A DNA stretch of 64,000 nucleotides from an uncultured candidatus Porisulfidus sp. (lineage in GTDB: Bacteria > Pseudomonadota > Gammaproteobacteria > Poriferisulfidales > Poriferisulfidaceae), in the NCBI GenBank assembly GCA_965221375.1, contig OZ244883.1:1107893-1171892 (forward strand), read 5' to 3'. The translations under genes and the position numbers were made by a program. The notes under the pieces are model-generated. The model had not been told where the DNA came from and ran no database searches. It was given only the letters and a program-made list of their open reading frames with translations. Positions 8,369-57,546 of the stretch are shown here, piece by piece (positions within the stretch are counted from its first letter, which is position 1; the number at the start of each line of letters is the position of its first letter).

Positions 8369-8373
8369 GCGAA

Positions 8374-17520: not shown

Positions 17521-17885
17521 TTTCTCCATAGGCAAGGCCAAAGTCAAGAGAAGCGCATGGCTGTGGACCTGAGTCTCGCCACTGGGGCGCTTCCGATTAT
17601 ACCCCGCCGCACGAAGCGAATCTTCGGCGAAGGGGAGGATTCCTCATCCTATGTCAGTGATAATCCGAAGTCCAGAAAAAACGGTCAGACCAACCTGCAC
17701 ATTTTTTTTTCACATTTAAATCAATAGATTAACCTTGTTTTTAAGGTTCTGTAGAGACAGATTTTGGCAAGAATGGGCGCGAAAATGCGCTTTTTCAGGG
17801 TGTTCGAGAATATGTCCGAACCCGTTTCAACTTGATTCGTTCAAGTGACACAGGGAAAGGCGGCCCGAATTTGATGGCGTGGCAC

Positions 17886-29667: not shown

Positions 29668-32600
29668 TCAAGCCACCCAAGCCCGAGCATTTCGAAATAA
29701 CCGCAGCCAAGGTGCTTCGTCGCTCCATTCCGAGGGATGCCAAGAGTGCTGCACAGTTCGAAAAACACGTTCGGGATGCGGCATCATAATCGTAAAACGC
29801 CCATCCGTATTGGTGAAAGCCGTCAAACCGCCCGCAGACCCATTGGGGTTGTGGGGGTAGTGCTCCGTCGCCTCGCCGTGCGCATCAACGAACCGCAGGC
29901 AAGCCGACACATTTAGGCGTTGCTTTTCGTCTGAAAAATCCGCACACCCTTCTCCGTGAGCCACCACAATGGGTACGCGGCTCCCTGCCATGCCCTGGAG
30001 CAGAATTGACGGAGATTCAAGAATCTCAACCTGACTCAATCGGGCTTCGAACTGTTCACTGGAATTTTTCACGAACCGCGGCCAGCACTCGGCACCCGGA
30101 ATAATATCCTTCAACTGGGACATCATCTGGCAACCATTGCACACCCCCAGCGCGAAAACATCAGGCCGCTCAAAAAACCTCTGAAATAAGTCACGCAATT
30201 TATTGTGAAACAATATATTTTTAGCCCACCCTCCTCCAGCCCCCAAGACGTCACCGTAGGAAAATCCGCCACAGGCCGCCAAACCGACCGTATCTTCAAG
30301 CAGCTCCGGAGAGGCCTGTAGATCGTTCATACATACGTCACGACATTCAAAACCAGCCTGGGCGAAAGCGGCCGCCATCTCAACCTGGCCATTGACACCC
30401 TGCTCCCGAAGAATGGCCACAACCGGCTTGGCTCCCACACCGACGTGAAGTGCTGCGGGGTTTTCGCAAGGATCAAAAGAGACTTCGGCAAATAAAGGCG
30501 GTCGACCCCACGTGCGACTCTCCTCATATTCGCTCCGCGCACACTCTTCATTGTCCCGACGACGCGCGATTTCATAACTGGTGCGGCTCCACAATTGATG
30601 CAGGTCCGTAAGCGACCATGTACGCACGTGGTGTCCTTGGCAATGCAAACTCAATTCCGGAGACTGCTGTATCTCCCCAATTCGCTCGCAAACAAGCCCT
30701 ACCTGTTCAAAACGACGGCAAATCGTCTCTACCTCCGCATCGCGCACTTGCACCACTGCCCCGATCTCTTCGTTGAATAAATAGCTCAAGACATCCTTTT
30801 CATCAGTGGGAATATCCAGGCTCAAACCCAATCGAGCGGCAAAGGCGCATTCGCACAGGCAGGCCCACAAACCTCCATCGGAGCGATCGTGATACGCCAG
30901 TAATTGATCCTCTTCCAGCAATGCCTGAACCAGATCAAAAAAAGCGGCCAATTGTTGCGCGTCTTCAACATCGGGAGTATCGGACCCCACTTGGGCATAG
31001 GCTTGCGCCAGAGCGGATCCCCCTAGGCGGCGCTGCTCATCCAGCGCAATGAGCAACAGACTGGTACTTTCCTCGTCGCGCAATTGAGGCGTAATATGGC
31101 GACGTACATGGTCGACAGGTGCGAATGCCGAGATCACCAACGAAACAGGCGAAAGCACGCGCTGATCGCCCCAAGCTGCTTGCATGGACAAGGAATCTTT
31201 GCCTACCGGAATGACAATCCCCAACTGGGGACAAAACTCCATGCCGACAGTCTCCACCGCGGCGCGCAATCCCTGAAGAGACTCGGTGTCGGAACTGGCG
31301 GCCATCCAGTTGGCCGACAAACAGATTCTTTGACGATTCCGAACTTTGACACTTGCCATATTGGTCAGGGCTTCCGCGACCGCCATGCGGGCGGATGCTG
31401 CCGGCTGGTGGATAGCAAGCATCGGACGCTCTCCCATGGACATGGCCTCTCCGGAAAACCCTTGAAAATCACTGGCGGTGACCGCCGCATCAGCGACCGG
31501 GACCTGCCACGGTCCAATCATCTGATCGCGAACGGTCAGTCCTCCGACCGAGCGATCGCCGATGGTAATCAAAAATGCCTTCGAGCCGACACTGGGCATC
31601 GCCAGTACCCGATCGACTGCTTCCTCGAAAACAATACCGACGCTATCGAAGGGGGTAGCTGTTTTTGTGGTGGACTTGATATCCAGATGAAGATTCGCCG
31701 ATTCTCCGAATAAAACAGACAACGGCATATCAATCACCACATTTTTCAGCATGCGGTCGGATAACCGCAGACGACCGGCGTCGGTCGCGTAGCCGACGAC
31801 CGCATAAGGACTGCGTTCGCGTTGGCAAATTTTCGCGAAATCGTCCAACGACTCGGGCCGAATCGCCAGCACATAACGCTCCTGCGCCTCATTGCACCAA
31901 ATTTCGCGTGGCGACATGCCGCTGTCGGCACAGGGAATATCCCGCAATTCCAGCTCAGCACCTCCCGGTTTTCCATCGACCAATTCCGGAATTGCGTTCG
32001 ATAACCCGCCCGCACCCACATCATGGATCGACAAGATCGGATTCTTTTCACCATGGGCCACACACTGCTCAATTACTTCCTGGGCTCTGCGCTGCATCTC
32101 CGGATTACTGCGCTGCACCGAGGCAAAATCCAGTTCTTCGTGGCTGGCCCCAGTATGCTGTGATGATGCCGCCCCTCCTCCCAGCCCAATCAGCATGGCC
32201 GGGCCTCCCAGCACAACAATCGCAGCCCCTTCGGGAATGGTTTGTTTGTGGATATGACCTGCTTGGATGCTGCCCAATCCGCCGGCAATCATGATTGGCT
32301 TGTGATAACCATAAGTACGTCTGCCTGAAGAGGACGGCACCTCCATCTCCAGTGTGCGGAAATAACCACTCAAGCACGGTCGGCCGAATTCGTTATTAAA
32401 GGATGCCGCACCGATAGGACCTTCAATCATGATGTCAAGCGGTCGCGCCATACGAGGAGAATGTCCCCGTTCCGGACGCTCCCACGGCTGTATCCAATTG
32501 GACAGGTTCAGATTAGACACTGTGAAACCGCATAACCCAGCCTTAGGTCTCCCACCACGGCCGCAAGCCGTCTCGTCACGAATTTCTCCCCCACTCCCGG

Positions 32601-33516
32601 TTGCTGCCCCCGGAAAAGGCGAAATGCCCGTGGGGTGGTTATGGGTCTCAACTTTAATCACGATGCCATATTCACCGTCTGACGATTTCCACAAGCGGCT
32701 CTCTGGGTCCACCGCCATGCGGCTGTAGCGGCCCGCCTGCATCACTGCCGCATTGTCTTGATAAGCCGACAGAACACCCTCCGGGGAAACCTCGAAGGTA
32801 TTGCGAATCATGTCAAACAAACTTCGCTCAATAGGCTTGCCGTCGATTGTCCAAGATGCGTTGAAAATCTTGTGGCGGCAATGTTCGGAATTGACTTGAG
32901 CAAACATCATCAGCTCTGCATCCGTTGGATATTTCCCTATTTTTTCATAGGCTTGATGCAAATAGGCAATATCCGCTTCAGATAAGGCCAAACCATAACG
33001 CGCATTCGCGTCACGCAAGATCGATACCCCATCATTCTGAAAATCAACGGTTTCAAGGGGCTGAGGCTCAGAGGACTGAAACAACTGAGCAATTTCCTTC
33101 ACATCCGCCAAAATGGTCTCGGTCATCGGATCGTGCAGCATGAGCAACAATTCCGGCTTCAGCCGTTCCACTCCTTCGATGCGATATTCAATGCCCCGCT
33201 CGATGCGCCTCACCGTTGTCAGGCCGCAAACACGAAAAATCTCTGTTGCTTTACTGGACCAGGGCGAAATCGTGCCCAGCCGCGGAATCGCAAAACATGG
33301 GGATCCGGAAGTTATTTCCTCACTCGCCGGAGCGTAATCAAGCAAAGCGCCCAATACGAGTTCTTCGCTTTGGGTGAAATCTGCGTCGCAATCTACAAAA
33401 TGATAGTACCGGGCACTGACAATAGTGCCGGAATGCTTTGCCGTAAGTCTCGCATTGAGTTTGCGGAGAAAACTACCGGACAGTGCCTGGCCGCCTGGAT
33501 AGATGCGTACGGGCAT
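29668..33516 (-). CDS. purL: phosphoribosylformylglycinamidine synthase (single-chain large PurL)
   Basis: 1282 aa; N-terminal domain, FGAM synthase PurM-like repeats, C-terminal class-I glutamine amidotransferase (GVCNGCQ). Confidence 0.93.
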   Translation of the reverse strand: MPVRIYPGGQALSGSFLRKLNARLTAKHSGTIVSARYYHFVDCDADFTQSEELVLGALLDYAPASEEITSGSPCFAIPRLGTISPWSSKATEIFRVCGLTTVRRIERGIEYRIEGVERLKPELLLMLHDPMTETILADVKEIAQLFQSSEPQPLETVDFQNDGVSILRDANARYGLALSEADIAYLHQAYEKIGKYPTDAELMMFAQVNSEHCRHKIFNASWTIDGKPIERSLFDMIRNTFEVSPEGVLSAYQDNAAVMQAGRYSRMAVDPESRLWKSSDGEYGIVIKVETHNHPTGISPFPGAATGSGGEIRDETACGRGGRPKAGLCGFTVSNLNLSNWIQPWERPERGHSPRMARPLDIMIEGPIGAASFNNEFGRPCLSGYFRTLEMEVPSSSGRRTYGYHKPIMIAGGLGSIQAGHIHKQTIPEGAAIVVLGGPAMLIGLGGGAASSQHTGASHEELDFASVQRSNPEMQRRAQEVIEQCVAHGEKNPILSIHDVGAGGLSNAIPELVDGKPGGAELELRDIPCADSGMSPREIWCNEAQERYVLAIRPESLDDFAKICQRERSPYAVVGYATDAGRLRLSDRMLKNVVIDMPLSVLFGESANLHLDIKSTTKTATPFDSVGIVFEEAVDRVLAMPSVGSKAFLITIGDRSVGGLTVRDQMIGPWQVPVADAAVTASDFQGFSGEAMSMGERPMLAIHQPAASARMAVAEALTNMASVKVRNRQRICLSANWMAASSDTESLQGLRAAVETVGMEFCPQLGIVIPVGKDSLSMQAAWGDQRVLSPVSLVISAFAPVDHVRRHITPQLRDEESTSLLLIALDEQRRLGGSALAQAYAQVGSDTPDVEDAQQLAAFFDLVQALLEEDQLLAYHDRSDGGLWACLCECAFAARLGLSLDIPTDEKDVLSYLFNEEIGAVVQVRDAEVETICRRFEQVGLVCERIGEIQQSPELSLHCQGHHVRTWSLTDLHQLWSRTSYEIARRRDNEECARSEYEESRTWGRPPLFAEVSFDPCENPAALHVGVGAKPVVAILREQGVNGQVEMAAAFAQAGFECRDVCMNDLQASPELLEDTVGLAACGGFSYGDVLGAGGGWAKNILFHNKLRDLFQRFFERPDVFALGVCNGCQMMSQLKDIIPGAECWPRFVKNSSEQFEARLSQVEILESPSILLQGMAGSRVPIVVAHGEGCADFSDEKQRLNVSACLRFVDAHGEATEHYPHNPNGSAGGLTAFTNTDGRFTIMMPHPERVFRTVQHSWHPSEWSDEAPWLRLFRNARAWVA

Positions 33517-33651: not shown

Positions 33652-34006
33652 TGGGGGTGACCCGGTTTCGACGGCGGTTACGGACTCCAAGGCGCATGCC
33701 GAGGCGGTAGCGACCTCGTAAAAAATGGCTGCAAAACATTAGTTGCCAACGACGACAACTACGCACTAGCGGCTTGATCCGCTAGTCATCCTTCCGGGAG
33801 ATGCTTGTGGATCCTGTTTGGATGTCGACTACACAAGCTCGCCTTGCAACCTGCCTGGAGTTGAAAGGTTAAACGAAACATCCAGACTGGCGATCATTAA
33901 GTCCTGTCCGTCGGGCGTTGATCGTAAGATAAAAGACGGTGCTAAGCATGTAGTGCCGAAGAGAAAGAACTGTTGGACGCGGGTTCGATTCCCGCCACCT
34001 CCACCA
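33652..34006 (+). ncRNA. ssrA: transfer-messenger RNA (tmRNA, SsrA)
   Basis: 5' GGGGGUGAC...UUCGACGG and 3' GGACGCGGGUUCGAUUCCCGCCACCUCCACCA form the tRNA-Ala-like acceptor/T-arm. Resume codon region GCAUGCCGAGG...; tag ORF GCC AAC GAC GAC AAC TAC GCA CTA GCG GCT TGA = ANDDNYALAA*. Collinear with E. coli ssrA. Confidence 0.93.
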
Positions 34007-34030
34007 ATCACCGGCTTCAAGAATTTCCAT

Positions 34031-34066
34031 AAGGCCTCGTAAAAAAGCTTTGCGAGGCCTTATCTT
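34031..34066 (+). terminator. rho-independent terminator after ssrA
   Basis: AAGGCCTCG - loop TAAAAAAGCTTTG - CGAGGCCTT followed by ATCTT, read directly. Confidence 0.7.
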
Positions 34067-34188
34067 ATGTGACTAGCGCGCAATATAGGCTTAAGGCATC
34101 CTTCTATATTTTGCATTTTAATAATATAAATGGTAATATTCTTCCATGTTATAATTTTTAAACATATAAGACCCAATTTGGGGTCCTT

Positions 34189-35346
34189 ATGTCAAAATCT
34201 AGTCAAATGGAACGAAGTGGCCACTTTCGGCATGTGCCTGCGGGGTATAGAGCATTCTTTCCTGCACTACTGCCACCCACGCCCCCTATTGCGATTGAGG
34301 GTAGCCTGCAACAGCTCCTTTCGAAGGCTGATCAAACCATGAGCGTGTTAAATGTGGTTTTTAGTGTTCTGCCTAACCCCGACCAATTAGTAGGAATGTT
34401 CATGCAGAAAGAGGCCTTGCTCAGCTCGCAGATTGAGGGTACCCAATCGTCCCTGATAGATGTGCTGGGAGTCGAAGAAGGTAATCCTCCAACAGCAGAT
34501 GTGGGAGAGGTCTTGAACTACCTGGCCGCCATGCGTCATGGCATGCAGCGTCTGCAAAAAAACGAACTTCCTCTGTGTGCTCGCCTGCTCAAAGAATTAC
34601 ATCTGAAATTGATGGCAGAGACAAGAGGAGGCGGCCCTCATCTCACTCCAGGTGAATTTCGCACTATGCAGAACTGGATTGGCGGCAGTAGCCCCGCCAA
34701 CGCTCGCTTTGTGCCACCCCCGGCCGATGAACTGGGCGTAATGTTCGGAGAGCTGGAGAAGTATTTCCATACCGAGAATGATACGCCGCCATTGGTGCAG
34801 TGTGCCCTGATTCACTACCAGTTTGAAACCCTGCATCCCTTCAATGATGGCAACGGGCGCTTGGGACGTTTGTTAATCAGCCTGTTTTTGTTAAGCAGAG
34901 GTGTGTTGGATCAGCCCATGCTGTATCTCAGCGCCTACCTGAAAATTCATCAACAAGAATATTACGATCGCCTGCAACAAGTGCGCACTGACGGTAGTTA
35001 TGAGAAATGGTTGACCTTTTTCTTGGAAGGTATTGTGGCTGTTAGTGATATGGTCATTGACACTACCCGCCGGATTCAAGCATTAGAGCGCAGTGATACA
35101 GACGCGATGACCACTGCCGGAACTGGCAGCGAAAGCATTGCCTTTATTCGTGCCCTGCTACAGCAGCCTGTTGTTTATGTAAGGGATATTGAAAGGCACT
35201 TGAACATCTCTTATGCCAAGGCCAATCAAATGGTGGCGTTGGCCGAAAAGATGGATATCCTGAAGCAAATCAGTCATGGCAAACGAAACCGGAAATACGG
35301 TTATCAAAAATATATTGAAATTTTGTCTGAAGGAACCGAAATCTAA
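34189..35346 (+). CDS. Fic-family protein (AMPylator-type, class II with N-terminal inhibitory motif) with C-terminal winged-helix domain
   Basis: 385 aa; Fic motif HPFNDGNGRLGRLL; inhibitory-helix-like SSQIEGTQ ((S/T)xxxE(G/N)) upstream of the active site; C-terminal ~70 aa HTH-like. Preceded by an AT-rich 120-bp spacer. Start could be ATG 34207. Confidence 0.85.
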   Translation: MSKSSQMERSGHFRHVPAGYRAFFPALLPPTPPIAIEGSLQQLLSKADQTMSVLNVVFSVLPNPDQLVGMFMQKEALLSSQIEGTQSSLIDVLGVEEGNPPTADVGEVLNYLAAMRHGMQRLQKNELPLCARLLKELHLKLMAETRGGGPHLTPGEFRTMQNWIGGSSPANARFVPPPADELGVMFGELEKYFHTENDTPPLVQCALIHYQFETLHPFNDGNGRLGRLLISLFLLSRGVLDQPMLYLSAYLKIHQQEYYDRLQQVRTDGSYEKWLTFFLEGIVAVSDMVIDTTRRIQALERSDTDAMTTAGTGSESIAFIRALLQQPVVYVRDIERHLNISYAKANQMVALAEKMDILKQISHGKRNRKYGYQKYIEILSEGTEI

Positions 35347-35542
35347 TGCCAAGGCCGCACTTTATATTCCTGGATAAATTACCCCTGTTTCCAAGTGCTT
35401 CACAGAATTGTCATAAAACATAAAACACATATAATAAATGAGCCGTCAACTTATCTGGTTACAGCGCTAGGAGAGTTTCTGCAGCAACTTAATTAGCTTC
35501 CTGCAGGCATAAACGTCAGGTGCTTTATCCAAGAGGTCCCTT

Positions 35543-38074
35543 ATGAAAAACAAACCGACAAAACACTGCAGCCGGACTGGACTTTTCTATGTCCTAGGCT
35601 ATCTGCTACTCGCTATAGCCCCTCCCCTTCACGCCGAGGAAGCTGAAAACGAGGAAGCCGCGGAAACTCCCGTTATCCCAATTAAAGTGGAAGCCGCTGA
35701 GATCAGCACCCAGCCTGGCCATACGAAATATGACGCCGAAGTAATTCAGAACATGCCTACGGGAGACTCTCACCTGTCCGACCTGTTGCGCCTGAATCCG
35801 GCTGTGGACTTTTCCCGAGAAAGCGACATATCCGGCAGTGCCACTCTACGTCCCGACGAAATTTCCATACATGGACAACGGTTTTACCAGAACCTTTTTC
35901 TTATTGACGGCATTGATACTACCAACGACTTGAATCCTGCATCGACTAATGACATTTTCAGTAACCCCAGTCTCTTCTTTCCGAATGGGGGAAGTTCCCC
36001 CCAGGGGTATTACGTTGACGTAGAACTGCTAGATAATGTCCAAGTTTTCGACAGTAATATTCCAGTCGAGTACGGGGGCTTCACCGGTGGAGTAATCTCT
36101 GCCGAACTGAAATCCTACGAGGGCGAAGACAAGTTTTCATGGCGCTTTGGAATAAAGCGAGATGAATGGGAGAGATATCATGTCAATGAGGGCGACCTTA
36201 CAGCTGCAGATTACTACGGTGGAGTCTACACACCCGACTATCAAAAAACCAATTTTAGAGTTAATGTGCAGCGGGAGATTGCTGAGAATTGGGGTTTAAA
36301 CTTAAGCGTGTCGCGACGTGTTTCACGCTTTGATCAGCGTTACGACAAAATAATTTCTGCAACAGGCCCTGTAGAAGACCGTACTGATAGACGGACCATC
36401 GAATACGAGGATAGAGTCGACAATATTCTCGGGCGAGTGGACACCGTGTGGGAAGGGAAAAAACTCGGACTCTCGTTCCGCTACGCTCGACGTCGACACG
36501 ATGGTCTAACCGCAACAAATTACGATGGGAGATTCGAGAAAGACCACGACGGTTACGGAATAACTGCTGACCTTGAAGGTGAGCGACCTTCCGGCCTATG
36601 GAAACTTAAGTTTGGCGCCGATCAGTTATCCGATGAATTAGACAGCGAGGACAATCTCTTTAGCTCCCATGAATCTGCGGAAGCGAGCCTGCTAGACTTG
36701 CAATACGAAGGTTCATACGGTGACACCAAGCAGAGGCAAACACGTCTCACTTTGAAACCGAAGTGGATTTTTAATACGCAGCATTTTTCTGGTGCCGAGC
36801 ACGACATTACTGCAGGTGGCGAAATGCGCTATACGAAAAGTTTCTACGAACGGCCGAGCAAGGTCGTCTATGAAAAATACGATTGCCGAACAGATAGTGC
36901 CGACCGTCTCGGTTGCCAAGACTATGATGGAGATGGTATCAGTGACCGTGGCGACGAATACCTTGCCCGAGTTGTCGACTATCTTCCCGGTAAAGTGAAT
37001 CTCAGCTACGGTGAATGGGCACTCTATGCTGAAGATCGGATGAACTTTGGACGGTTAAAGGTCAACGCTGGTTTGCGGGCAGATCGTAACAGCTTTCTCG
37101 AAAATCTGGATGTAGCACCACGCCTTTCCTTGGACTGGAACGTCTTTGGCGATGGACGAACTCACATCACTGCCGGTGCCAATCGCTACTATGGGCGTAG
37201 TTTCATGCGCCTTCAGCTGAACGATGCGATCTATGGGTGGCGAGAATGGCGTGATTACAACCAAGACGGCTCTTTAAGGCGTCTCCGCACCTACGACAAC
37301 AGAAGCGGAGCTTCGGACTTGGACACCCCCTATTCAGATGAGTGGATGCTCGGTTGGAGCCAAATATTCGGCCCGCTTACTCTCCGCATGCAGTATGTTG
37401 ATCGTAAAAGTCGGGATGGGATAACTCGCCGATATGAAAATATCGATGATGACAGTGCCCGCGAATACTACTACACAAACGACGGACGCAGTTCGACTGA
37501 AAGTACGACATTTGAAGTGACCACTGAAACCCCCAAAAGCCCTGGCGCTGCTTGGACCCAATTCACACTGGCGTTGAATTACAAAGATTCTGAAAGCAAC
37601 TCCCAAGATGACGCTGGCTACGACGAAGCAATCGACGAAGAACTCATTTATTACAAAGGTCGAGTGATTTCATTTGACCAACTCCCAGCATGGGATTACA
37701 ACATTCCATTCGGAGCTCGTTTGTTTGCAACGACCCATATCCCCCAGTGGAACGTGGTTTGGTCGAACTTTTTCAACCTGCGCCGGGGTGGAACCATTGC
37801 CCAAGATTCACGTAGGGACTGCGACGATAGAGACCCAGTTACAGGTGAAGTTTATTGTGACGGCGATTATGACATCTACGAAGATACTGACTTCAAAAGT
37901 TTGGTCATCGTAGACACCAAAATTCAATGGCAACCCCGTATCCTCGACCAGTCATTCTACGTGAAAGTTGAAGTCAAAAACGTGTTTGATAAAGTCATCA
38001 ACGTCAGCACCACCACTCGCAGATCCTACACAAGTGGGCGACTTTGGTGGATTGAGACGGGCATGGATTTCTGA
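35543..38074 (+). CDS. TonB-dependent outer-membrane receptor
   Basis: 843 aa; signal peptide ...APPLHA, TonB-box-like ETPVIPIKVEA, plug motif VEYGGFTGGVISAELKS, long beta-rich body, C-terminal aromatic residue (..GMDF). Spot GC count ~40%. Confidence 0.8.
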   Translation: MKNKPTKHCSRTGLFYVLGYLLLAIAPPLHAEEAENEEAAETPVIPIKVEAAEISTQPGHTKYDAEVIQNMPTGDSHLSDLLRLNPAVDFSRESDISGSATLRPDEISIHGQRFYQNLFLIDGIDTTNDLNPASTNDIFSNPSLFFPNGGSSPQGYYVDVELLDNVQVFDSNIPVEYGGFTGGVISAELKSYEGEDKFSWRFGIKRDEWERYHVNEGDLTAADYYGGVYTPDYQKTNFRVNVQREIAENWGLNLSVSRRVSRFDQRYDKIISATGPVEDRTDRRTIEYEDRVDNILGRVDTVWEGKKLGLSFRYARRRHDGLTATNYDGRFEKDHDGYGITADLEGERPSGLWKLKFGADQLSDELDSEDNLFSSHESAEASLLDLQYEGSYGDTKQRQTRLTLKPKWIFNTQHFSGAEHDITAGGEMRYTKSFYERPSKVVYEKYDCRTDSADRLGCQDYDGDGISDRGDEYLARVVDYLPGKVNLSYGEWALYAEDRMNFGRLKVNAGLRADRNSFLENLDVAPRLSLDWNVFGDGRTHITAGANRYYGRSFMRLQLNDAIYGWREWRDYNQDGSLRRLRTYDNRSGASDLDTPYSDEWMLGWSQIFGPLTLRMQYVDRKSRDGITRRYENIDDDSAREYYYTNDGRSSTESTTFEVTTETPKSPGAAWTQFTLALNYKDSESNSQDDAGYDEAIDEELIYYKGRVISFDQLPAWDYNIPFGARLFATTHIPQWNVVWSNFFNLRRGGTIAQDSRRDCDDRDPVTGEVYCDGDYDIYEDTDFKSLVIVDTKIQWQPRILDQSFYVKVEVKNVFDKVINVSTTTRRSYTSGRLWWIETGMDF

Positions 38075-38142
38075 CCACGGGTATGCTGCTGGCGACAGCA
38101 GAGACACAGCTTTGATTTGGATGTATGCTCGGCAGAGCATGA

Positions 38143-39117
38143 TTGGCTAGATGCCAAACATCATGCCCCGCTGAACTCAAATTTAATTTTCGGCTGGCAT
38201 TTATGAATATTCCAAGTGATTTGAGTGCCGGCACTAAAGGCGCAATCGCCTCTCGCCACTGGTTTGCCTCCACCGCAGCGGCAAGTTTGCTGCATATATG
38301 CGTCTTGGGGTTACTCTCTTTGACCACTGTCGAGGGAGCCGAAGATCAAGGCGAACAAGGTGTTGAAATTGACTTCGGCATGCTTGGCGACATGGGCGAA
38401 ATGGTGGAAACTTTAGCGCAGAGCCAAGCCGCCGCCGAAGCCTATTCGAAGGTGATGCCCGAAGAAAAAATTGAAGAGCCCATAGACCCGCCTAAAGCAC
38501 CCGAGCCTGTGCCTGAACCGGAAACCGAGACTAAACCCAAAGAAGAAAAAAAGATAGTCAAAAAGGCGGAAGTCGTCCAGCCCGTCATAGAATCGGTTCA
38601 AAAAAAGAAATCCGAAAAAAACATTAGAAAGCCTGTCCCGGAGTTTGTACATAAACCTGCCCCACCATGGCCAAAGACGCATACCCAACCCGCCAAACCG
38701 GTAACCGCACGTCAGAAGCCGGCACAAACACCGAGCCGGCCTGCGATCGATTCGCCTGCCGTAGCGAAAATATCTACCGGACAGGCCCAGGCAAAATCGA
38801 TGGGAGGTAACCCCGGTGCGGAACGCGCCTATCTTGCCTTGCTGGCCGCCAAATTGCGTAGCAAGAAATTTTATCCGCTATCGGCAAGACTCAACAAAGA
38901 TGAAGGGGAAGTAACTCTGCTCCTTACGCTCGGCCGCGATGGGCAGGTCCTGGATGCACGCATCGGCAGAAGCTCCGGGATTTCTGTGCTCGACGAATCT
39001 GTTCTGCAGATGCTGGAGAAAGCCAAACCCCTGCCCCCTTTCCCGTCGAGCATGCAGCAATCAAGATTTACTGTACGTATTCCTGTTTCTTTTAAACTGG
39101 ACCAGTTTTTTAACTAG
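38143..39117 (+). CDS. tonB: TonB energy-transducer
   Basis: 324 aa (or ~304 from MNIPSD at 38203); N-terminal TM with SxxxH (ASLLH), Pro/Glu/Lys-rich spacer (PEPVPEPETETKPKEEKK), C-terminal TonB domain (YPLSARLNKDEGEVTLLLTLGRDGQV). Confidence 0.8.
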   Translation: MARCQTSCPAELKFNFRLAFMNIPSDLSAGTKGAIASRHWFASTAAASLLHICVLGLLSLTTVEGAEDQGEQGVEIDFGMLGDMGEMVETLAQSQAAAEAYSKVMPEEKIEEPIDPPKAPEPVPEPETETKPKEEKKIVKKAEVVQPVIESVQKKKSEKNIRKPVPEFVHKPAPPWPKTHTQPAKPVTARQKPAQTPSRPAIDSPAVAKISTGQAQAKSMGGNPGAERAYLALLAAKLRSKKFYPLSARLNKDEGEVTLLLTLGRDGQVLDARIGRSSGISVLDESVLQMLEKAKPLPPFPSSMQQSRFTVRIPVSFKLDQFFN

Positions 39118-39185
39118 CGGAATCGGGTCCAAGCGATTTGGCGTCAGGTCTCTGGCGGAATCCTACCTTGCCCGTGTCTATGTAA

Positions 39186-40271
39186 CTAGCGCCCTGGTAG
39201 TTGAGGGGGTCTCACAATGTGGGGACGGCGACCTAGCGTGCCGAGAAAAGCTTCGAGGGCCTGAATTTCGCTTTCTTCCAAGTCCAGAGGCCTGATAAGT
39301 GGAGAAAGTTCAGGTTCCTCGGGAACTCTTTTTTTTGAAAACGAGATGCCGCGGTTATACATGCGAAGAATACCCGTGAGATTGTCAAACAATCCGTTAT
39401 GCATCCAAGGCCCGGTAAATGCGAGGTCCCGCAATGAGGGGGTGCGAAATTTGCCGCGGTCGCTCACTTCACCAGTTACGTAAAAGCGGCCCAAATCCTC
39501 AAACCGACGACCGGTATAACTGAGTCCTGTGTGATGAAATTGGCCATCCGAAAACAGCGAGCCATGATGGCAGTTCATGCATCGCGCCTTGGTGCGAAAT
39601 AAATGCAGTCCTTCAATTTCCTGATCTGATAACCGGTCGTATTCCCCTCGGACGAATTGATCAAACGGACTGGTCCGAGACCGAATCGTTCGGATAAATG
39701 CGCTCATTGCTTGAGCGATGCGATCGAGATTAATTTCGGGAGTGCCAAACGCATTTTGAAATTCCGTAGCGTAACCATCAATCTTGGATATCCGCTCGAT
39801 CACGTGATCCAAGTTTGCCTTCATCTCAATAGAACTTGCAATCGGTATGGGAATCAATGACAGCAGGTCGTCCGCCCGCCCGTCCCAAAAGAGCTTGTCG
39901 AAATACGCCACATTCAGGAGCGTCATCGTATTGCGGCGTCCGGAGAGGCGATCGTGTCCGAAAGCCACTTCTCGGCCATCAGTCCAGCCAAGTTGTGATT
40001 CGTGGCAGTTCGCACAAGCAATCTGTTGGGAGCCCGACAAGCGTGGGTCAAAAAACAGGATTCTGCCAAGTCGCTCAATTTCTTTAGTCTGCCACGAGAC
40101 TTTAGCTGGGGGTTGAAGTTCTCCCAACTCGACAGCATGGACCCCCGCATCTACTTCAAAAGGAGGCCATGCCTCGACACCTTGTCGATACTGATCTACC
40201 AGACCTGCCGAAAGCCCAGTGCAGGCCGATAGGCATACATGAAACAAAATCAGTTTATGTACAAATTTCAT
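39186..40271 (-). CDS. di-haem cytochrome c peroxidase family lipoprotein (CCP/MauG/MbnH family)
   Basis: 361 aa; lipoprotein signal ...CLSAC, two CxxCH haem sites (CANCHE, CMNCHHG), conserved PSLRD and W/M residues of bacterial CCPs. Confidence 0.85.
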   Translation of the reverse strand: MKFVHKLILFHVCLSACTGLSAGLVDQYRQGVEAWPPFEVDAGVHAVELGELQPPAKVSWQTKEIERLGRILFFDPRLSGSQQIACANCHESQLGWTDGREVAFGHDRLSGRRNTMTLLNVAYFDKLFWDGRADDLLSLIPIPIASSIEMKANLDHVIERISKIDGYATEFQNAFGTPEINLDRIAQAMSAFIRTIRSRTSPFDQFVRGEYDRLSDQEIEGLHLFRTKARCMNCHHGSLFSDGQFHHTGLSYTGRRFEDLGRFYVTGEVSDRGKFRTPSLRDLAFTGPWMHNGLFDNLTGILRMYNRGISFSKKRVPEEPELSPLIRPLDLEESEIQALEAFLGTLGRRPHIVRPPQLPGR

Positions 40272-40411
40272 GATTGTCCGCAGTTCCTGCGCTGCTTACT
40301 CGCGTAACACCTCGCTACTCCATGCACATCTTTATTTTACTTTCAAACGTATGAAAGCGTCTCGACCGCCTCAACTGTACCTGCAAAACCCCCATAGAAA
40401 AGAACCGCACA

Positions 40412-40834
40412 TCAACTTTCTTCCGGCCTGCTGAATAAAGTAACTTTAGAAATTTGAAGCTGGCGCAGAATCTCGAACAATCGGTCCAGATTTTTAGCCT
40501 TAACCTCTTTATCTGCTTTCACGATGACCCCTTCTGAACCTGCATTTGTTGCTCCCAAAATATCCGCATCCAAAGATTCGTACGTGACAGGCTTGCCATT
40601 GATACTGAGTGAATTATCTGTTTCCAGAATCAGCACAACCGGAGCATGTACTAATGGTTTTTTACTACTTGAAACCGGAGGATCAATATTACGTCCTCGA
40701 GGATCCGTAATCTGCCCAGCAATCATATAAAACACCAGCATCAAAAACACGATGTTGACAAGTGGAATCATGTTATCGTCACCACCACGTTTAGAACGTG
40801 GCGTATATAACTCGTTCGAAAACATACCGCCCAC
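40412..40834 (-). CDS. exbD: ExbD/TolR-family biopolymer transport protein
   Basis: 140 aa; N-terminal MIPLVNIVFLMLVFYMI TM, periplasmic ExbD domain. Confidence 0.8.
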   Translation of the reverse strand: MGGMFSNELYTPRSKRGGDDNMIPLVNIVFLMLVFYMIAGQITDPRGRNIDPPVSSSKKPLVHAPVVLILETDNSLSINGKPVTYESLDADILGATNAGSEGVIVKADKEVKAKNLDRLFEILRQLQISKVTLFSRPEES

Positions 40835-40841
40835 AATGAAC

Positions 40842-41264
40842 TTATTCAGTTTTTTCAGAGAATGAGTTCCCCAAGGTCACATGTTTGAGACCAATCCTCT
40901 TGAGACTTTCAATGGCGGAGAGGATGGTTTGCAGATTTGCATTTTCTTCCGGCAAGACGACATGGGACTTTTCGAATTCGAACTCAAAAATGCTTGGGTC
41001 TGTGAGTTCTTTGTAGTGCGCAACTGAAAAAGTGCTGTCGTGGAACCTCAGGCCACCCACTTCATCCAGCCACACAATTTGCGGCAACTGAACATCCTCA
41101 CTAAAACTTGAAGTCGGAGAATGAAGGTCTACTGCCCGCCATTGAGTAAACGTAAAGGACAGCATGAAAAACAGCAATAATATGAATACTACGTCAATTA
41201 GCGCGGTTAAACTGATTGTGTGACGCCTTGCGCGATAAAGCGGCTCCGCATTCATAGATGCCAT
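40842..41264 (-). CDS. exbD: ExbD/TolR-family biopolymer transport protein (second paralogue)
   Basis: 140 aa; LTALIDVVFILLLFFML TM segment; tandem ExbD as in ExbB-ExbD1-ExbD2 systems. Confidence 0.78.
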   Translation of the reverse strand: MASMNAEPLYRARRHTISLTALIDVVFILLLFFMLSFTFTQWRAVDLHSPTSSFSEDVQLPQIVWLDEVGGLRFHDSTFSVAHYKELTDPSIFEFEFEKSHVVLPEENANLQTILSAIESLKRIGLKHVTLGNSFSEKTE

Positions 41265-41279
41265 CTCAAATCACGTCAC

Positions 41280-41948
41280 TTACTGCCCATTGGCTCTTGC
41301 CTGGATCGTAAACAGGCGTTCCAAATCATCTTGTATCCCCGCAGCATACCGCTCAACCCGGCGCTCAAACCAACTATGAGCCAGCGCAACCGGGATGGCG
41401 ACTGCCAAACCCACCGCCGTCGTCAACAGAGCCTTCCATATCCCTCCGGAGAGTACTGCAGGATTAACTTGCGAACCGGCTGCCTCCATAGCCTGAAAAG
41501 CCTCAATCATGCCCAGAACCGTGCCAAATAACCCCAAAAGCGGGGATAAAGTGAAAATCACTTCGAGCGGACGCAGATAATTCCCTAATTTCCGAATCAC
41601 CGTTTTAGCAACGCGCATGGACTCCGCTCTTACTTCGTCCAAGGAAAGATTCGAATTTTCAAAAAGCTTCAAAGTTTCATATGAAATATACGCGCGCGGG
41701 TCCTTTTGCCCCTGCAGCAGTAACATCGCCTGTGGTCTGTCTCCACTTTCAATAAGGTCGAGGGCTTGAGTGCTATCCGTCTTCGAAGTTTGCCTTATCG
41801 AAAAAAATTGCCAAAATTTGACCAGACTGATAGTAAGGGCAACTACTGAAAAACAACCTAATAGCCAAACAACGGGTCCCCCGAGAACCAAAAATTTACT
41901 AAGGTTTTCAAACATGACATGCATGTAAGCCATAATGAAACTTGCCAA
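41280..41948 (-). CDS. exbB: ExbB/TolQ/MotA-family proton-channel protein
   Basis: 222 aa; three TM segments, LSPLLGLFGTVLGMIEAF signature. Confidence 0.82.
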   Translation of the reverse strand: MASFIMAYMHVMFENLSKFLVLGGPVVWLLGCFSVVALTISLVKFWQFFSIRQTSKTDSTQALDLIESGDRPQAMLLLQGQKDPRAYISYETLKLFENSNLSLDEVRAESMRVAKTVIRKLGNYLRPLEVIFTLSPLLGLFGTVLGMIEAFQAMEAAGSQVNPAVLSGGIWKALLTTAVGLAVAIPVALAHSWFERRVERYAAGIQDDLERLFTIQARANGQ

Positions 41949-42174
41949 ATGCGGGTTTGTCTAAGAAAAAATAGGAATTATTTAACTAAAAGAACGAGAA
42001 TAGCTCTTTTCAGTACAAGTATTATAGATTGCGTTTCGCCAGATCCGTGGAATGCCGATGAAGATACTGCTTCTTTTCTCTAGTTTCCGGGATAGAGAGG
42101 CTTACATTTTCTCCGAAATTATTAAAATACGCAATAACGCCAATTCCTCACGTCTCTATAAGAAACCTCGCGCT

Positions 42175-42498
42175 ATGACTTTTGTTGTGACCGAAGACTG
42201 CATCAAATGCAAATACACCGATTGTGTAGAAGTCTGCCCGGTCGAATGCTTCCATGAAGGCCCGAATTTTCTCGTCATAGACCCGGAGGAATGCATTGAC
42301 TGTGCACTGTGTGTGCCGGAATGTCCGATTGATGCGATTGTGCCGGAGAAAGACTTGCCTGAAAATCAAAAAGACTTCCTTGAACTGAATGCCAACCTCT
42401 CAAAAGAATGGCCGGTGATCGCTCTGCAGAAGCCTCCCCCTCCCGATGCGGACGAGTGGCGCAACATACCAAATAAAAGAGACTTGCTTGAGGCTTGA
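42175..42498 (+). CDS. fdxA: 7Fe ferredoxin (Azotobacter FdxA-type)
   Basis: 107 aa from ATG 42175: [51 protein letters not shown], i.e. CxxCxxxC...CP and CxxCxxCxxxCP. The ORF-track N-terminal 41 aa (from 42052) do not look like coding sequence. Confidence 0.85.
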
Positions 42499-45357
42499 GT
42501 GAAACTGCTCATATGCCCCACGCACCAATTACTGAGTGCTTATTGCGCGGAAACGATTATTAACCGGCATGCCGAACTGCTGCCGGACCTGACTCGATTA
42601 ACGCTGCTCACTCCAAATGCAACCTCGGCTGTTGCTTTTCGACGGGCCTTACTTCTCGAAGCTCAAAAAAGAGACTTTACCGGGTTGATATTGCCCGATA
42701 TTCAGCCTCTGCGCACTTGGGTCCAAACGAGTCAAGACGCCCCCAAAGCTGAAAGCTCTTTGTCCGAACTGTTGGATTTGTGGCAGGCGTTGCGCACTTC
42801 TCCACATGTGCTCAACCAGTCTAATCCTTGGGCCACCGCTCGCGAACTACTCACACTGTTCGAAGGCCTTTGGCTAAGCGACGATTATTTTCTGCAGGAT
42901 GAGGACCAGATGACAGCTCGGTTGCAGCAAGCCTATGGCATTCCTGACAGCTCCTCTGTAAAGTTCCGAAATGAAACCCATGTTGTCCACAATCTGTGGC
43001 GGGCCTGGGAAGCTGGATCAAAAGAACTGCTAAGTTCCAGTCAGCAATATCGTGAAGCCCTTCGAAAGGTCCCGGAAGCAGTAGAGACGGAAGCTTTATA
43101 CCTGTGCGGCTATGAACGATTGATGCCTGCGGAAATACAAGCGCTGCAGCAAATAAGCCGAAACATACCCGTGACCTGTCTGACGCGACCGCGTCATTAC
43201 ATTCGATCAGATCTGCCTGTGGAGGAAATTTCTGCGGCCCCTTCGCCGTATGCGTATGCCCTTGAGCAGGCATTTAATCTTGGTAGCGAGGAAAATTTGA
43301 GAAAGCGGGCACAGGCCTGCCGAAAAATCTACCCTCAAAGCCCTCTCTCCGGTCGATTGCATTTTTTTGCCGCTGAGCAAGCCGAGCCTCATGCCAGTGC
43401 AATTACACTCCAAATCCGCCGCTGGATTCACGAAAAGAGGCAAAACATCGGGCTTGTAACCGAAGACCGAAAACTGGCACGCCGGATACGTGCTCTTTTG
43501 GAACGCCACGACATTTACGTCAATGATTTTGCGGGTTGGGCTCTGTCGACCACGAGTGTCGCCGGTGTCATCGTGCATTGGCTGGATTGCCTTGATCAAG
43601 ATTTTTACTATCGCGTGATGCTCGATGTATTGAAATCACCATTTGTGAAATTCAAGAATATTAAGCCCCATCATCTAAAACAGGTCAAAGAACTGGAAAC
43701 GCTGCTGCACAGAAACCACACCTCCCAAGGTTGGGCGCATTATGAATGTCTGGCAACTCAAAAACCGGAACTGCAGAATTTATTGCGTGCGGTAAACCAA
43801 GCTGCCGAGCCTTTAACAACCCTTCGATCAAACCCCACCGGGCCCGAATACATCACTGCCCTACTCAAAAGCCTTGACCGGCTGGGTTGCATCGCGAGTT
43901 TTTCTGATGACGAGGCGGGTCGTCAAGTTTTGGAGAAGCTTGAAGCCATTCGTTTTCAGTTAACCGACAACACCGCAAATTTGCCCAAACATCAGTGGCG
44001 TTCAATTATTTGCCATTTCCTGGAAAACCAGGATTTCCGGCCTGAAACTTCACAGCCTGGCGTGTCTTTGATTAATCTCAATCAATCCCATATGGCTCAA
44101 TTCGATTATTTGATTGTTGCCGGTATGGATGCTCGGCATTATCCTCACACTTCTTCATCTTTCATTTTTAACGACACCGTCCGGAAAGATTTGGGCTTGC
44201 CAACTGAAGCTGAACAGCGGGAACTGGATTTGCAGCGCTTTTCAGCCTTGCTGATGTCCACCGAAAAAGTGTTGATGACATATCAGAAAAACGAGGAGGA
44301 CGAGCCTTTGCTGCCAAGCACCTGGTGGACTCAAATAAAGGTTTTCAACAAACTTGCTTACAAGAAACCGCTGGACGATCAATGGCTTCCCTCCATGCTC
44401 TCCTGGCAAACAAATGAATCTCTCTACCCACCCCAGAAAGCCCCTCGCCCTGATTCCGTCCAATCCATGCCGCAGCCTGCAGCATGTGCGGACTTGCTCC
44501 CCGAAAAAATATCAGCGAGGGCTCACCAGGACCTAATCCACTGCCCTTATCGTTTTTATGTGCATTACATGCTGGATATTCGAAAGATTGACACGATCCG
44601 TGAAGAAATGAATCCCGCAGATTTTGGCAACTTTGTCCATAGATGTCTTGAAGCTTTTCACAAGGATGTTCCAGGCCTTCCCGGACCTTGGGAAAAGCCT
44701 ATCACCGGGAATGAAGGTGATGCGCTGGATACGCTGGAAAAAATTGGTCGGCACAGTATCGAACGCCATGATGACAACCTTCCCCGAAAAGTTTTTTTGG
44801 AACGCTGGAGACAAATTTCACGACGTTATCTGGAAATGCAGAAAAATATCGAAACCGAAAGAAGTATTGTTGAAGTTGAAAATAAATCCGAGCGTGACCT
44901 TGGGGGCCTCACTCTGCATGGGCGCATTGATCGCATCGACCAGACTCGGAATTCAAACAAAATTGTGATCGACTACAAGACCGGAAGTACTCCCATTAAA
45001 AATCCAGAAATACAAGCGGGAGAAGACGTTCAGTTAATCAGCTATACCTTGATACACGATGCGATTGATCAAGTCGAATATTGGTGGCTCAATTCCAGCA
45101 ACACGTACACATCTCATGAACGCACTACCCTATCGAACAAAACATTGCTCGATGTGCGCAACAAAGTTTGCGACCGGCTGTTAAGCCTCTACCAGCGCCT
45201 GCAGGAAAACGCGAGTCTCCCGGCGAACGGCAGTCAAGAAGCATGTAAGTATTGCGATGCGAAAGGCATTTGCCGAAAAGATGTCTGGCAAGATCAAGAC
45301 CAGACAATAAAGCAAGCAGGAATAACTATTGAGACGAAGACGGCAACTCTTCCATGA
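42499..45357 (+). CDS. AddB-like PD-(D/E)XK nuclease with Fe-S 'iron staple', N-terminal inactivated-helicase-like region
   Basis: 952 aa starting with GTG directly after the fdxA stop (TGA GTG). No Walker A seen. C-terminal RecB-type nuclease motifs (GRIDRID...IVIDYKTG) flanked by Cys before (HCPYRFY) and CxxCxxxxxC after (CKYCDAKGIC), the AddB four-Cys arrangement. No AddA/UvrD-like partner in the window. Confidence 0.65.
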   Translation: MKLLICPTHQLLSAYCAETIINRHAELLPDLTRLTLLTPNATSAVAFRRALLLEAQKRDFTGLILPDIQPLRTWVQTSQDAPKAESSLSELLDLWQALRTSPHVLNQSNPWATARELLTLFEGLWLSDDYFLQDEDQMTARLQQAYGIPDSSSVKFRNETHVVHNLWRAWEAGSKELLSSSQQYREALRKVPEAVETEALYLCGYERLMPAEIQALQQISRNIPVTCLTRPRHYIRSDLPVEEISAAPSPYAYALEQAFNLGSEENLRKRAQACRKIYPQSPLSGRLHFFAAEQAEPHASAITLQIRRWIHEKRQNIGLVTEDRKLARRIRALLERHDIYVNDFAGWALSTTSVAGVIVHWLDCLDQDFYYRVMLDVLKSPFVKFKNIKPHHLKQVKELETLLHRNHTSQGWAHYECLATQKPELQNLLRAVNQAAEPLTTLRSNPTGPEYITALLKSLDRLGCIASFSDDEAGRQVLEKLEAIRFQLTDNTANLPKHQWRSIICHFLENQDFRPETSQPGVSLINLNQSHMAQFDYLIVAGMDARHYPHTSSSFIFNDTVRKDLGLPTEAEQRELDLQRFSALLMSTEKVLMTYQKNEEDEPLLPSTWWTQIKVFNKLAYKKPLDDQWLPSMLSWQTNESLYPPQKAPRPDSVQSMPQPAACADLLPEKISARAHQDLIHCPYRFYVHYMLDIRKIDTIREEMNPADFGNFVHRCLEAFHKDVPGLPGPWEKPITGNEGDALDTLEKIGRHSIERHDDNLPRKVFLERWRQISRRYLEMQKNIETERSIVEVENKSERDLGGLTLHGRIDRIDQTRNSNKIVIDYKTGSTPIKNPEIQAGEDVQLISYTLIHDAIDQVEYWWLNSSNTYTSHERTTLSNKTLLDVRNKVCDRLLSLYQRLQENASLPANGSQEACKYCDAKGICRKDVWQDQDQTIKQAGITIETKTATLP

Positions 45358-47556: not shown

Positions 47557-47663
47557 GTTCGTCTCAAATCAAACCGCGCATTCTTGTCGTAGAGCGCAGC
47601 GTTAATGTCTGTTGATTGGGCGTCTAGGTGCGCCAGCCCTTGGTGTATGAATAAGTGAATCTT

Positions 47664-47768
47664 TTATGCCGCTAGCCGCGGCAGGAGAAGTTCAGCCAGG
47701 GTAAAGGATAGCGCCACGGTTCGGGGTGTCGCCGTCGTAGAGTTCAAAAAAGTGTTCCTGAATTGCAT
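47664..47768 (-). promoter_or_regulatory. candidate leucine-rich leader peptide ORF in the leuA 5' region (34 codons, 7 Leu including CTT-CTC-CTG run)
   Basis: Hand translation of the minus strand: MQFRNTFLNSTTATPRTVALSFTLAELLLPRLAA*, ending 107 nt upstream of the leuA ATG. No convincing terminator hairpin found downstream. Confidence 0.3.
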
Positions 47769-47851
47769 TTTTCCTGCAGATTCGGTCAATTCAACCGAGG
47801 TGCATAGATTACCGCATATTTTCAGCTTTGCCTAATGGCACTCAAAGGGTC

Positions 47852-56920: not shown

Positions 56921-57288
56921 GCCTTGTCCTTGTTGCGATCATCGGGGCGGGTGGAGCTGAATTTGCTCCGGCGCGATCTGCGAATGCGCTGCGGTAAACG
57001 CTGTTCTTCGAGCCCAAGACCCACTGCGTCCGTTGTAACGTCCGCCAATTCACCCAATCGCTCCGCCATTCCCAAAACAAAGAGCACATTGGCGTAGTTC
57101 CCAAGAGAAACGCCCGGGTCTCCCTTTTCGATTTTGTTCAGGGTCGTCCGGCTGATAGAAGCCCTTTCCGCCATGATGGCGGTAGGAATGCGCCGCCTGA
57201 GTCGGGCATCTCGAATATCCTGGCCGAGCTTACGCAGAGCCCGCCGGACCGGAATCGGCAACATCAAATCCAGTTGCGTTTCTCTCAT
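56917..57288 (-). CDS. hipB: HipB-like XRE-family HTH antitoxin
   Basis: 123 aa; HTH IPTAIMAERASISRTTLNKIEKG, basic C-terminal tail. Confidence 0.75.
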   Translation of the reverse strand: MRETQLDLMLPIPVRRALRKLGQDIRDARLRRRIPTAIMAERASISRTTLNKIEKGDPGVSLGNYANVLFVLGMAERLGELADVTTDAVGLGLEEQRLPQRIRRSRRSKFSSTRPDDRNKDKA

Positions 57289-57309
57289 TTTTCGTCCATT
57301 TTTATAATC

Positions 57310-57326
57310 ACAATATATATTATTGT
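57310..57326. promoter_or_regulatory. inverted repeat ACAATA-TATAT-TATTGT upstream of hipB (candidate operator)
   Basis: Read directly in the AT-rich hipB 5' region, 22 nt from the hipB start. Confidence 0.4.
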
Positions 57327-57387
57327 ATATAATAATGGACGATATGTATATCTATTTCCTGCCCTTTCCAACTCTAAATATAACTTT

Positions 57388-57407
57388 ACGTCTATTATAT
57401 TAGACGT
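57388..57407. promoter_or_regulatory. inverted repeat ACGTCTA-N6-TAGACGT upstream of hipB (candidate operator)
   Basis: Read directly; 7-bp perfect arms, 100 nt upstream of hipB. Confidence 0.4.
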
Positions 57408-57546
57408 AATATGATTTTATACCTAGAATAATGCCTTGCGCATCCACAACTCATCGCGGGTCTGTAGGGTGTCCTCAAAACCTTTCGTCAATGCCATCCT
57501 GTCATCTCTTGTCGCTTCCGAGCGAACATCATGAGACGTGGACATA

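Follow-up and report, generated by a model that had tools for sequence, protein, structure and literature searches.

Introduction

The gene for transfer-messenger RNA (tmRNA), ssrA, is a documented landing site for mobile elements (Williams 2002, NAR 30:866, as relayed in PMC10250203), and in Pseudomonas aeruginosa it flanks a core defence hotspot, cDHS2 (PMC10250203). Here we describe an accessory block lying directly 3′ of ssrA in a 64,000-nucleotide (nt) stretch of DNA, hereafter the window, from an uncultured candidatus Porisulfidus sp. (GenBank assembly GCA_965221375.1, contig OZ244883.1, positions 1,107,893 to 1,171,892 of the forward strand). The block, at window positions 34007–42174, is probably a lineage-specific composite islet at a recurrent hotspot between ssrA and fdxA, acquired after the split from the nearest sequenced relatives and now devoid of mobility genes. 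As in islands at transfer RNA (tRNA) and tmRNA genes and in cDHS2, variable DNA of foreign composition sits directly 3′ of ssrA between conserved core flanks, and the cargo varies by genome (a Fic gene and a TonB module here, an HNH nuclease gene in a related genome) and includes defence-type genes (SoFic, HNH). Unlike tRNA/tmRNA islands, the locus has no integrase, att direct repeat or any mobile-element gene, the inserts are very small (8.2 kb here and 1.2 kb in the relative), and the cargo here serves mostly nutrient uptake rather than defence or virulence.

The two kinds of cargo also have described counterparts. SoFic has been reported to be an AMPylase that is toxic and confers defence by abortive infection (PMC12249575). 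Grinter et al. 2019 (PMC6793856) described the crystal structure of YddB, a transporter of Escherichia coli. They found the FusA/YddB family to be sporadic and niche-specific in distribution and FusA homologues without FusC to be often linked to cytochrome c peroxidase genes, and proposed redox processing of the imported protein cargo by the peroxidase. The transporter encoded in the block is a full-length homologue of the Fus/YddB transporters with a likewise sporadic, niche-specific distribution, and, as with the FusC-less FusA homologues of Grinter et al. 2019, it is accompanied by a di-haem peroxidase instead of a protease. The module in the window differs from Fus/YddB systems in having neither an M16 protease nor an ABC exporter and in having its own ExbB-ExbD-ExbD energiser, and its host, an uncultured gammaproteobacterium with tetrahydromethanopterin (H4MPT) genes, a source contig of 1.64 Mb and related contigs of 1.57–2.02 Mb, is not a plant or animal pathogen.

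The ssrA-fdxA junction in related genomes

The block and its immediate flanks are as follows.

29668–33516, minus strand: purL, divergent from ssrA
33653–34006, plus strand: ssrA (tmRNA), identified by ARAGORN and Rfam (RF00023, 216 bits), tag ANDDNYALAA; left anchor of the insertion
34007–42174: inserted accessory block, 8,168 nt, 48.2% GC, delimited by locus contexts, junction sequences, blastn breakpoints and composition
42175–42498, plus strand: fdxA, 107 amino acids (aa), NCBIfam FdxA_Protbact above cut-off; native right flank
42499–45357, plus strand: AddB-like PD-(D/E)XK nuclease gene, native and fast-evolving, syntenic in all relatives

The AddB-like protein, although poorly conserved, was the better search anchor: with it, a sister clade was found at 47–51% identity and, beyond this, another clade at about 42%. 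A PurL-anchored scan of genome contigs gave relatives at 51–55% identity among the matches listed and no useful synteny, purL-ssrA adjacency being kept in only four distant loci among those matches. A metagenome scan with the AddB alignment returned two loci, of which L090 (LXNI01000015.1) was the informative one. The gene order on the fdxA side is conserved in all seven related genomes and that on the purL side in five of them; the shared order is H4MPT genes, GHMP kinase, purL, ssrA, fdxA, AddB, UDG, leuA and ABC transporter. Identities between the window and the relatives were 67–71% for PurL, 81–86% for LeuA and 72–86% for FdxA.

The block is absent from all seven related genomes. One of them, L090, has a differently filled site (see below), and the other six, which belong to two clades, have an empty one; the comparison proposed in a preliminary description of this DNA, namely whether ssrA is followed directly by fdxA in relatives, thus gave a positive answer in six relatives, at a distance of 32–66 nt. 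The distances from the ssrA CCA to the fdxA ATG are listed here.

L082: 42 nt
L083: 39 nt
L092: 64 nt
L094: 66 nt
L084: 53 nt
L093: 32 nt
Window: 8,168 nt

In blastn, homology to the relatives ended at the ssrA CCA (34006) and restarted at 42170–42175, and the last 30 nt of ssrA were the same, with no differences, in the window, L082, L083 and L084. The segment of 34067–42050 given in the preliminary description therefore came within about 60–125 nt of the true breakpoints but fell short of the true block, 34007–42174, and its right-hand boundary, described there as unclear, is now set at the fdxA start (42175), where homology has returned. The open reading frame (ORF) start at 42052 was rejected as spurious for fdxA, the true start being 42175 by comparison with the relatives; the gene is 86% identical to the L082 and L083 copies.

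Pairwise identities of five proteins and ssrA gave the tree ((L082,L083),window),L084, from which it follows that ssrA-fdxA adjacency is ancestral and the block a derived insertion. Presence and absence alone give no direction without a rooted tree, and a block that was ancestral at the site and cleanly deleted in all relatives examined would produce the same pattern; this is nevertheless very improbable, since on the above tree the sister clade and the outgroup clade with 42% AddB identity would each have to have lost it by a separate, nearly exact deletion (two events at the least), L090 has a different insert at the same site, the composition of the block is foreign, and both of its cargo units occur in unrelated contexts elsewhere.

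The sole further record of the Fic protein of the block was a metagenome contig of 9 kb and low coverage in which the genes follow the same order, effectively the same strain. In a search of the protein collection, the best match of the AddB-like protein was only 51%, though the TonB-dependent transporter and Fic proteins of the source were found at 100%; the record of this genome seems incomplete there.

Gene content and composition of the block

The block contains seven genes and two non-coding features, listed below together with the Fic cassette as a unit.

34029–34063, plus strand: terminator-like hairpin (inverted repeat) 3′ of ssrA
34101–35347, plus strand: solo Fic cassette, comprising an 88-nt AT-rich upstream region and the Fic gene
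34189–35346, plus strand: Fic gene, 385 aa, Pfam Fic_N and Fic
35408–35435, plus strand: strong match to a sigma-70-like promoter, TTGTCA-16-TATAAT (11/12), upstream of the transporter gene; a consensus match only
35543–38074, plus strand: TonB-dependent transporter (TBDR) of the FusA/YddB family, 843 aa, with signal peptide, plug domain (Pfam Plug) and C-terminal Phe
38143–39117, plus strand: TonB (Pfam TonB_C, TIGR01352, PDB TonB/HasB), C-terminal domain at residues 242–319
39186–40271, minus strand: periplasmic di-haem protein of the cytochrome c peroxidase (CCP)/MauG family, Pfam CCP_MauG (E=4e-50), with CANCH and CMNCH
40412–40834, minus strand: ExbD, second copy in transcription order (Pfam ExbD)
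40842–41264, minus strand: ExbD, first copy in transcription order (Pfam ExbD)
41280–41948, minus strand: ExbB proton-channel subunit (Pfam MotA_ExbB)

The true start of TonB is probably an internal ATG near 38203. The hairpin is part of the inserted DNA, and the 32–66-nt spacers of the relatives contain nothing equivalent. It is followed by an AT-rich spacer, as had been reported for the region after the ssrA terminator, and 34007–34188 has 34.6% GC. That the segment opens with a Fic-family gene and carries a complete TonB uptake system (TBDR, TonB, ExbB and two ExbD) was likewise borne out by Pfam; the CCP/MauG gene had gone unmentioned.

The block is two independent cargo units, the solo Fic cassette and a six-gene TonB/CCP module, because the two have different closest relatives and occur separately elsewhere (see below). 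Both are foreign to the window in composition. By sliding window, the lowest-GC interval of 8,168 nt in all 64 kb starts at 34001, whereas intervals of this size that do not overlap 34007–45357 have a mean GC of 54.3% (standard deviation 1.0%, minimum 52.1%). The dip in GC noted earlier is thus real, but values of 40–45%, then attributed to the TBDR, TonB and ExbD genes alike, hold only for ExbD: both ExbD genes have 43–45%, compared with 49.0% for TBDR, 51.6% for TonB, 50.8% for CCP, 48.0% for ExbB and 48.9% for Fic. The flanks are higher in GC, as described (purL 54.5%, leuA 53.0%). GC at third codon positions (GC3) of the seven block genes is 0.39–0.52, each value being lower than those of all 43 genes outside 34.0–45.4 kb (Mann-Whitney U=0, p=1e-8), and codon-bias z-scores are positive for all seven (0.5 to 2.2). 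GC-normalised tetranucleotide correlation with the rest of the window falls to its minimum of r=0.695 at 34–38 kb, versus about 0.90, and is back at 0.875–0.93 across fdxA and AddB. The combined GC and tetranucleotide check suggested in the preliminary description therefore singled out the block as the part of the 64 kb with both the lowest GC and the lowest correlation.

Co-transfer or replacement of fdxA and AddB was considered in view of the low GC3 of AddB (0.493 in the window) and its identity of only 49%, and the same two genes had earlier been regarded as possible parts of the island. This was rejected because their tetranucleotide signature is native, the relative rates fit a fast-evolving vertical gene, and AddB is the lowest-GC3 gene in L082 too; both genes are, moreover, syntenic in all relatives.

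Recurrent insertion after ssrA and the search for mobility traces

At the identical ssrA-fdxA junction, L090 carries an unrelated insert of 1,211 nt (8467–9677) with 45.7% GC in a locus of 56% GC. Its sole gene encodes an HNH_2 nuclease that matches the PADLOC HNH model. The 15-nt ancestral spacer motif CCAATCCGATATACT, common to the empty site of L094, is perfectly kept on the fdxA side of the L090 insert, which shows that the foreign DNA entered directly after ssrA. In this bacterial family, the junction between ssrA and fdxA thus seems to serve as a recurrent, integrase-less hotspot.

Of the possible old island at the tmRNA site proposed in the preliminary description, the part concerning position stands, with foreign, lineage-specific DNA located exactly at the ssrA 3′ end, but a classical single integrase-borne island could not be demonstrated. 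Under that explanation the block is one island in the ssrA 3′ end, the integrase and attR of which have since been lost by deletion or decay. Tyrosine integrases that use tRNA and tmRNA genes classically target the position right after the CCA, as found here at ssrA (Williams 2002, cited in PMC10250203), the insert brings its own terminator hairpin right after ssrA, as an attP-derived end would, its composition is foreign, and Fic is typical island cargo. The foreign DNA starts with the base that follows the ssrA CCA, is absent in the relatives and is atypical in composition, all as in tRNA/tmRNA islands; a recombinase gene inside the element and a distal direct repeat of the ssrA 3′ end, which such islands have, were not found. 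The seven block genes were all assigned by Pfam to families other than integrases, recombinases and transposases, and the intergenic gaps are 226 nt or shorter, leaving no space for an integrase pseudogene. The last 60 nt of ssrA and the next 60 nt had no match elsewhere in the 64-kb window at 14/14, 15/16, 16/18, 17/20 or 20/24, so that even at relaxed stringency no attR-like repeat, and none of the remnant attR whose search downstream had been suggested, was detected; the earlier observation that integrase, transposase and a repeat of the ssrA 3′ end are missing thus proved correct. Other repeats flanking the block amounted to short, chance-like matches in the window repeat search. The two cargo units, with different closest relatives and found apart in other genomes, also speak against a single island, and the single-gene insert of L090, located at the same site and likewise without an integrase or a repeat of the ssrA 3′ end, is accounted for at least equally well by a hotspot. 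As L090 has no attR beside a perfectly kept ancestral motif, decay of attR is no easy excuse. Taken together, a classical island is a doubtful explanation of the block.

A composite islet at the hotspot could have been assembled by more than one route. Site-specific integration at the tmRNA 3′ end, with the integrase and attR lost or the integrase acting in trans, is quite possible and is favoured by the exact position after the CCA and by the terminator that the insert supplies. Integrase-independent recombination, that is, exchange at the hotspot, is conceivable with some reservation, and is favoured by the two independent inserts without attR, one of them beside the perfectly kept motif. 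Relocation or exchange within the family of a module already native to it is the least likely of the three (see below). We also entertain the rather improbable idea that a precise mechanism, either independent of an integrase or provided in trans, targets the post-CCA junction and loads it with small cassettes, each of one gene or a few, with no att duplication. If true, such precise loading would be a hotspot mode distinct from that of classical tRNA/tmRNA islands, and SoFic with the module as well as the HNH gene of L090 would fit it.

Plasmid and phage records were searched for a carrier. Fic relatives were present on 196 plasmid records, none with an identity above 44%, and for TBDR only distant homologues were obtained (25–29% identity, some annotated yddB), with no close vehicle. 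Locus L001 was tried as a positive control for a canonical ssrA island and was rejected, its ssrA neighbours being OGFr_N, GGDEF, ParE and a phage CRI fragment, without integrase.

Insertion hotspots at the ssrA 3′ end are of a well-known kind, and the present finding is in this respect real but ordinary. For annotation it gives breakpoints to within a few bases and the true start of fdxA, and separates native from acquired genes.

The Fic cassette

The translation of the Fic gene has HPFNDGNGRLGR as its catalytic motif and SSQIEG as an inhibitory motif near the N-terminus, a combination that assigns the protein to class II Fic. These motifs are said to have been defined by Engel et al. in 2012 as HxFx(D/E)GNGRxxR for the catalytic and (S/T)xxxE(G/N) for the inhibitory one. 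The protein matched the PADLOC SoFic model over its full length (residues 19–381, E=6.5e-105) and the SoFic structures in PDB (3EQX, 3ZCN) with E values of about 1e-29 to 1e-30; its score against the NCBIfam SoFic equivalog was 154 bits, the cut-off being 550. It resembles SoFic in the full-length PADLOC match, in its Fic_N, Fic and C-terminal domain arrangement, in both motifs, and in being the product of a solo, AT-rich, patchily distributed gene, and differs in falling below the NCBIfam equivalog cut-off, in its low identity to the solved SoFic structures and in the lack of a conserved small antitoxin gene of the AS1 type downstream.

The nearest Fic homologues, at 75% aa identity, stand alone in unrelated chromosomal settings, without mobility genes in the vicinity. 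In one of these loci, L088, nucleotide identity was 74.5% over 34101–35347, including the 88 nt upstream of the gene, and the L088 Fic gene is also AT-rich relative to its host (GC3 0.44 versus 0.53–0.77 in the flanking genes). Homologues at 62–65% identity occur in Desulfuromonadales and Geobacteraceae. As this exceeds the identity of PurL to that of any other gammaproteobacterial order (55% or less among the matches listed), the gene is likely to be transferred frequently.

On the basis of these similarities, Fic is predicted to be a self-inhibited toxin or abortive-infection defence gene, a SoFic-type class II AMPylase. A search downstream of Fic for a conserved AS1-like antitoxin gene gave only unconserved ORFs of 25–33 aa. 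A 25-aa ORF in the window (35346–35423), which is not conserved downstream of the L088 homologue, has a start overlapping the Fic stop (TAATG); by analogy with the AS1 antitoxin reported for E. coli SoFic, its product could be a small partner whose translation is coupled to that of Fic.

The TonB/peroxidase module

TBDR had two credible matches in PDB, 6OFR (E=2.4e-80, residues 58–843) and 4ZGV (FusA, E=7e-67); the third match was marginal (E=3e-4) and to an unrelated protein. We take 6OFR to be the YddB crystal structure of Grinter et al. 2019. Identity of TBDR to the products of E. coli genes annotated yddB was about 29%. CCP matched CcpA (E=2e-44), MbnH-like 6E1C (E=2e-31) and MauG (E about 1e-23) in PDB, and was below the NCBIfam equivalog cut-offs for both MauG (TIGR03791, 224 versus 444 bits) and MbnH (TIGR04039, 194 versus 363 bits). 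No gene for an MbnP or methylamine dehydrogenase partner was identified in the block by Pfam. By sequence similarity, CCP is closest to the canonical bacterial CcpA enzymes rather than to the MauG/MbnH equivalogs.

The energiser set is complete, with a TonB C-terminal domain, MotA_ExbB and ExbD in Pfam, though the NCBIfam matches of TonB, ExbB and ExbD were below equivalog cut-offs except for the tonB_Cterm domain. In the Fus cluster, FusB is a TonB-family gene, and the module in the window likewise has a TonB of its own; the dedicated TonB-ExbB-ExbD-ExbD set makes the module self-sufficient. Neither an M16 protease (FusC/PqqL) nor an ABC exporter is encoded in the block, and a di-haem CCP occupies the position of the protease partner in 3 of 3 distinct genomes. 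The block components are all from known families, and the pairing of a TonB-dependent transporter with a peroxidase is already in the literature.

Elsewhere, the module occurs without Fic. L087 has a six-gene module of the same internal arrangement downstream of ftsK-lolA-rarA (identities to the window 57% for TBDR, 73% for CCP, 70% for ExbB and 54–55% for ExbD), and L085 and L086 have co-directional CCP-TBDR-ExbB-ExbD-ExbD-TonB between mdh and csrA-lysC-alaS-recA. The GC content of the module deviates from that of the host in all three genomes, the pattern expected of a transferable unit. In L085 (8789–14938) the deviation is upward, opposite to that in the window and L087: the module has 52–55% GC in a genome of 47% GC (1.68-Mb contig), which suggests that it came from a donor of higher GC. 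The module moves between genomes of very different GC and so looks like a self-contained, transferable unit of nutrient piracy.

From its similarity to Fus/YddB systems, the module would import a large, probably protein-bound iron or haem substrate over the outer membrane by means of the proton-motive force, and the di-haem enzyme may subsequently carry out redox processing of the cargo in the periplasm, in place of the M16 protease of Fus/YddB-PqqL. The module is a reasonable candidate for the idea that a di-haem enzyme replaces the protease in cargo processing, and an environmental example of the peroxidase-associated branch of FusA/YddB import systems, in a lineage with contigs of only about 1.6–2 Mb.

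The TonB/CCP module could instead be native to the family, with no distant donor, and have reached the ssrA-fdxA site by relocation or by homologous recombination among family members. The identical internal arrangement in L087 is in line with this, and L087 comes from the same sample, ERZ25084491, as L094 of the sister clade, at a coverage of 3.60x versus 3.89x. However, no other DNA of the window deviates in composition as strongly as the module, which has 48.7% GC compared with 54.3% for the window core and 58% for the L087 copy, whereas a long-resident cluster should match its host in composition; the L085 copy is clearly foreign, with a GC above that of its host; and none of nine sister-clade contigs of at least 1.5 Mb was among the carriers of the best 120 of 151 TBDR homologues, which is weak evidence as only the longest contig per cluster was included. 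A family-native origin of the module is accordingly unlikely, and acquisition of the block as a composite islet is preferred.

Several points weigh against this preferred reading or parts of it. The flanks of the L087 module are family-like (tetranucleotide r=0.90 with L094), and the identities of 54–73% between the window and L087 modules lie within the housekeeping range of 45–93% versus the sister clade, both as expected of a family-native module. With PurL of the nearest relative only about 70% identical, neither the time at which the block was inserted nor any intermediate stage can be seen. The compositional background consists of 64 kb of the source genome only. Because the native AddB gene has a low GC3, low GC alone is not diagnostic and would misplace the boundary; it was indeed low GC that misled, and tetranucleotide usage and synteny that gave the correct boundary. 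As for function, we purely infer the substrate of the module and the role of the peroxidase, and no Fur box was found near the module promoters in the window scan, the best matches (14/19) lying elsewhere, which leaves iron regulation and a role in iron uptake unproven.

Other features of the window and the related loci

Downstream of the AddB-like gene, the window continues with a UDG-family glycosylase gene and leuA. The remainder is core metabolism (clp, aconitase, fumC, purB, thrC, hom, pcm, moeA/moaE, fae), with H4MPT genes, a branched-chain ABC transporter and guaA. Besides the block, a further small dip in GC is located next to guaA at 55661–58236, where a HipA-like kinase gene (55661–56920) and a helix-turn-helix partner (56917–57288) resemble a toxin-antitoxin pair and are followed by a methyltransferase-like ORF of 44% GC (57547–58236); this is probably another small accessory patch. 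At 16792–17547, a 251-aa coiled-coil, apolipoprotein-like repeat protein is encoded, which is a codon-usage outlier (z=2.4) with a strong local AT skew.

Among the related loci, L092 (a 2.02-Mb relative) has an N6/N4 DNA methyltransferase gene and two small ORFs between GHMP kinase and purL (1642–3319) and a Peptidase_M78 (ImmA/IrrE, capP-like) gene between purL and ssrA (8359–9000), showing that the 5′ side of ssrA is variable too. In L084 (7632–9191) and L093 (7616–9211), which form a clade of about 75% GC, a homologue of TraG/TrwB-like type IV coupling proteins replaces purL directly upstream of ssrA, and no further conjugation genes were visible at these loci. Between leuA and the ABC transporter, L082 (15542–16495) and L083 (15563–16492) have a TraB/PrgY/GumN-family gene that is absent from the window (gap 47557–47851), L090, L092 and L094. 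The genomes syntenic around ssrA span 54% to 75% GC, very wide for one lineage, with GC3 of about 0.97 in L084 and L093, and the assembled contigs of the lineage with this synteny reach only about 1.6–2.0 Mb.

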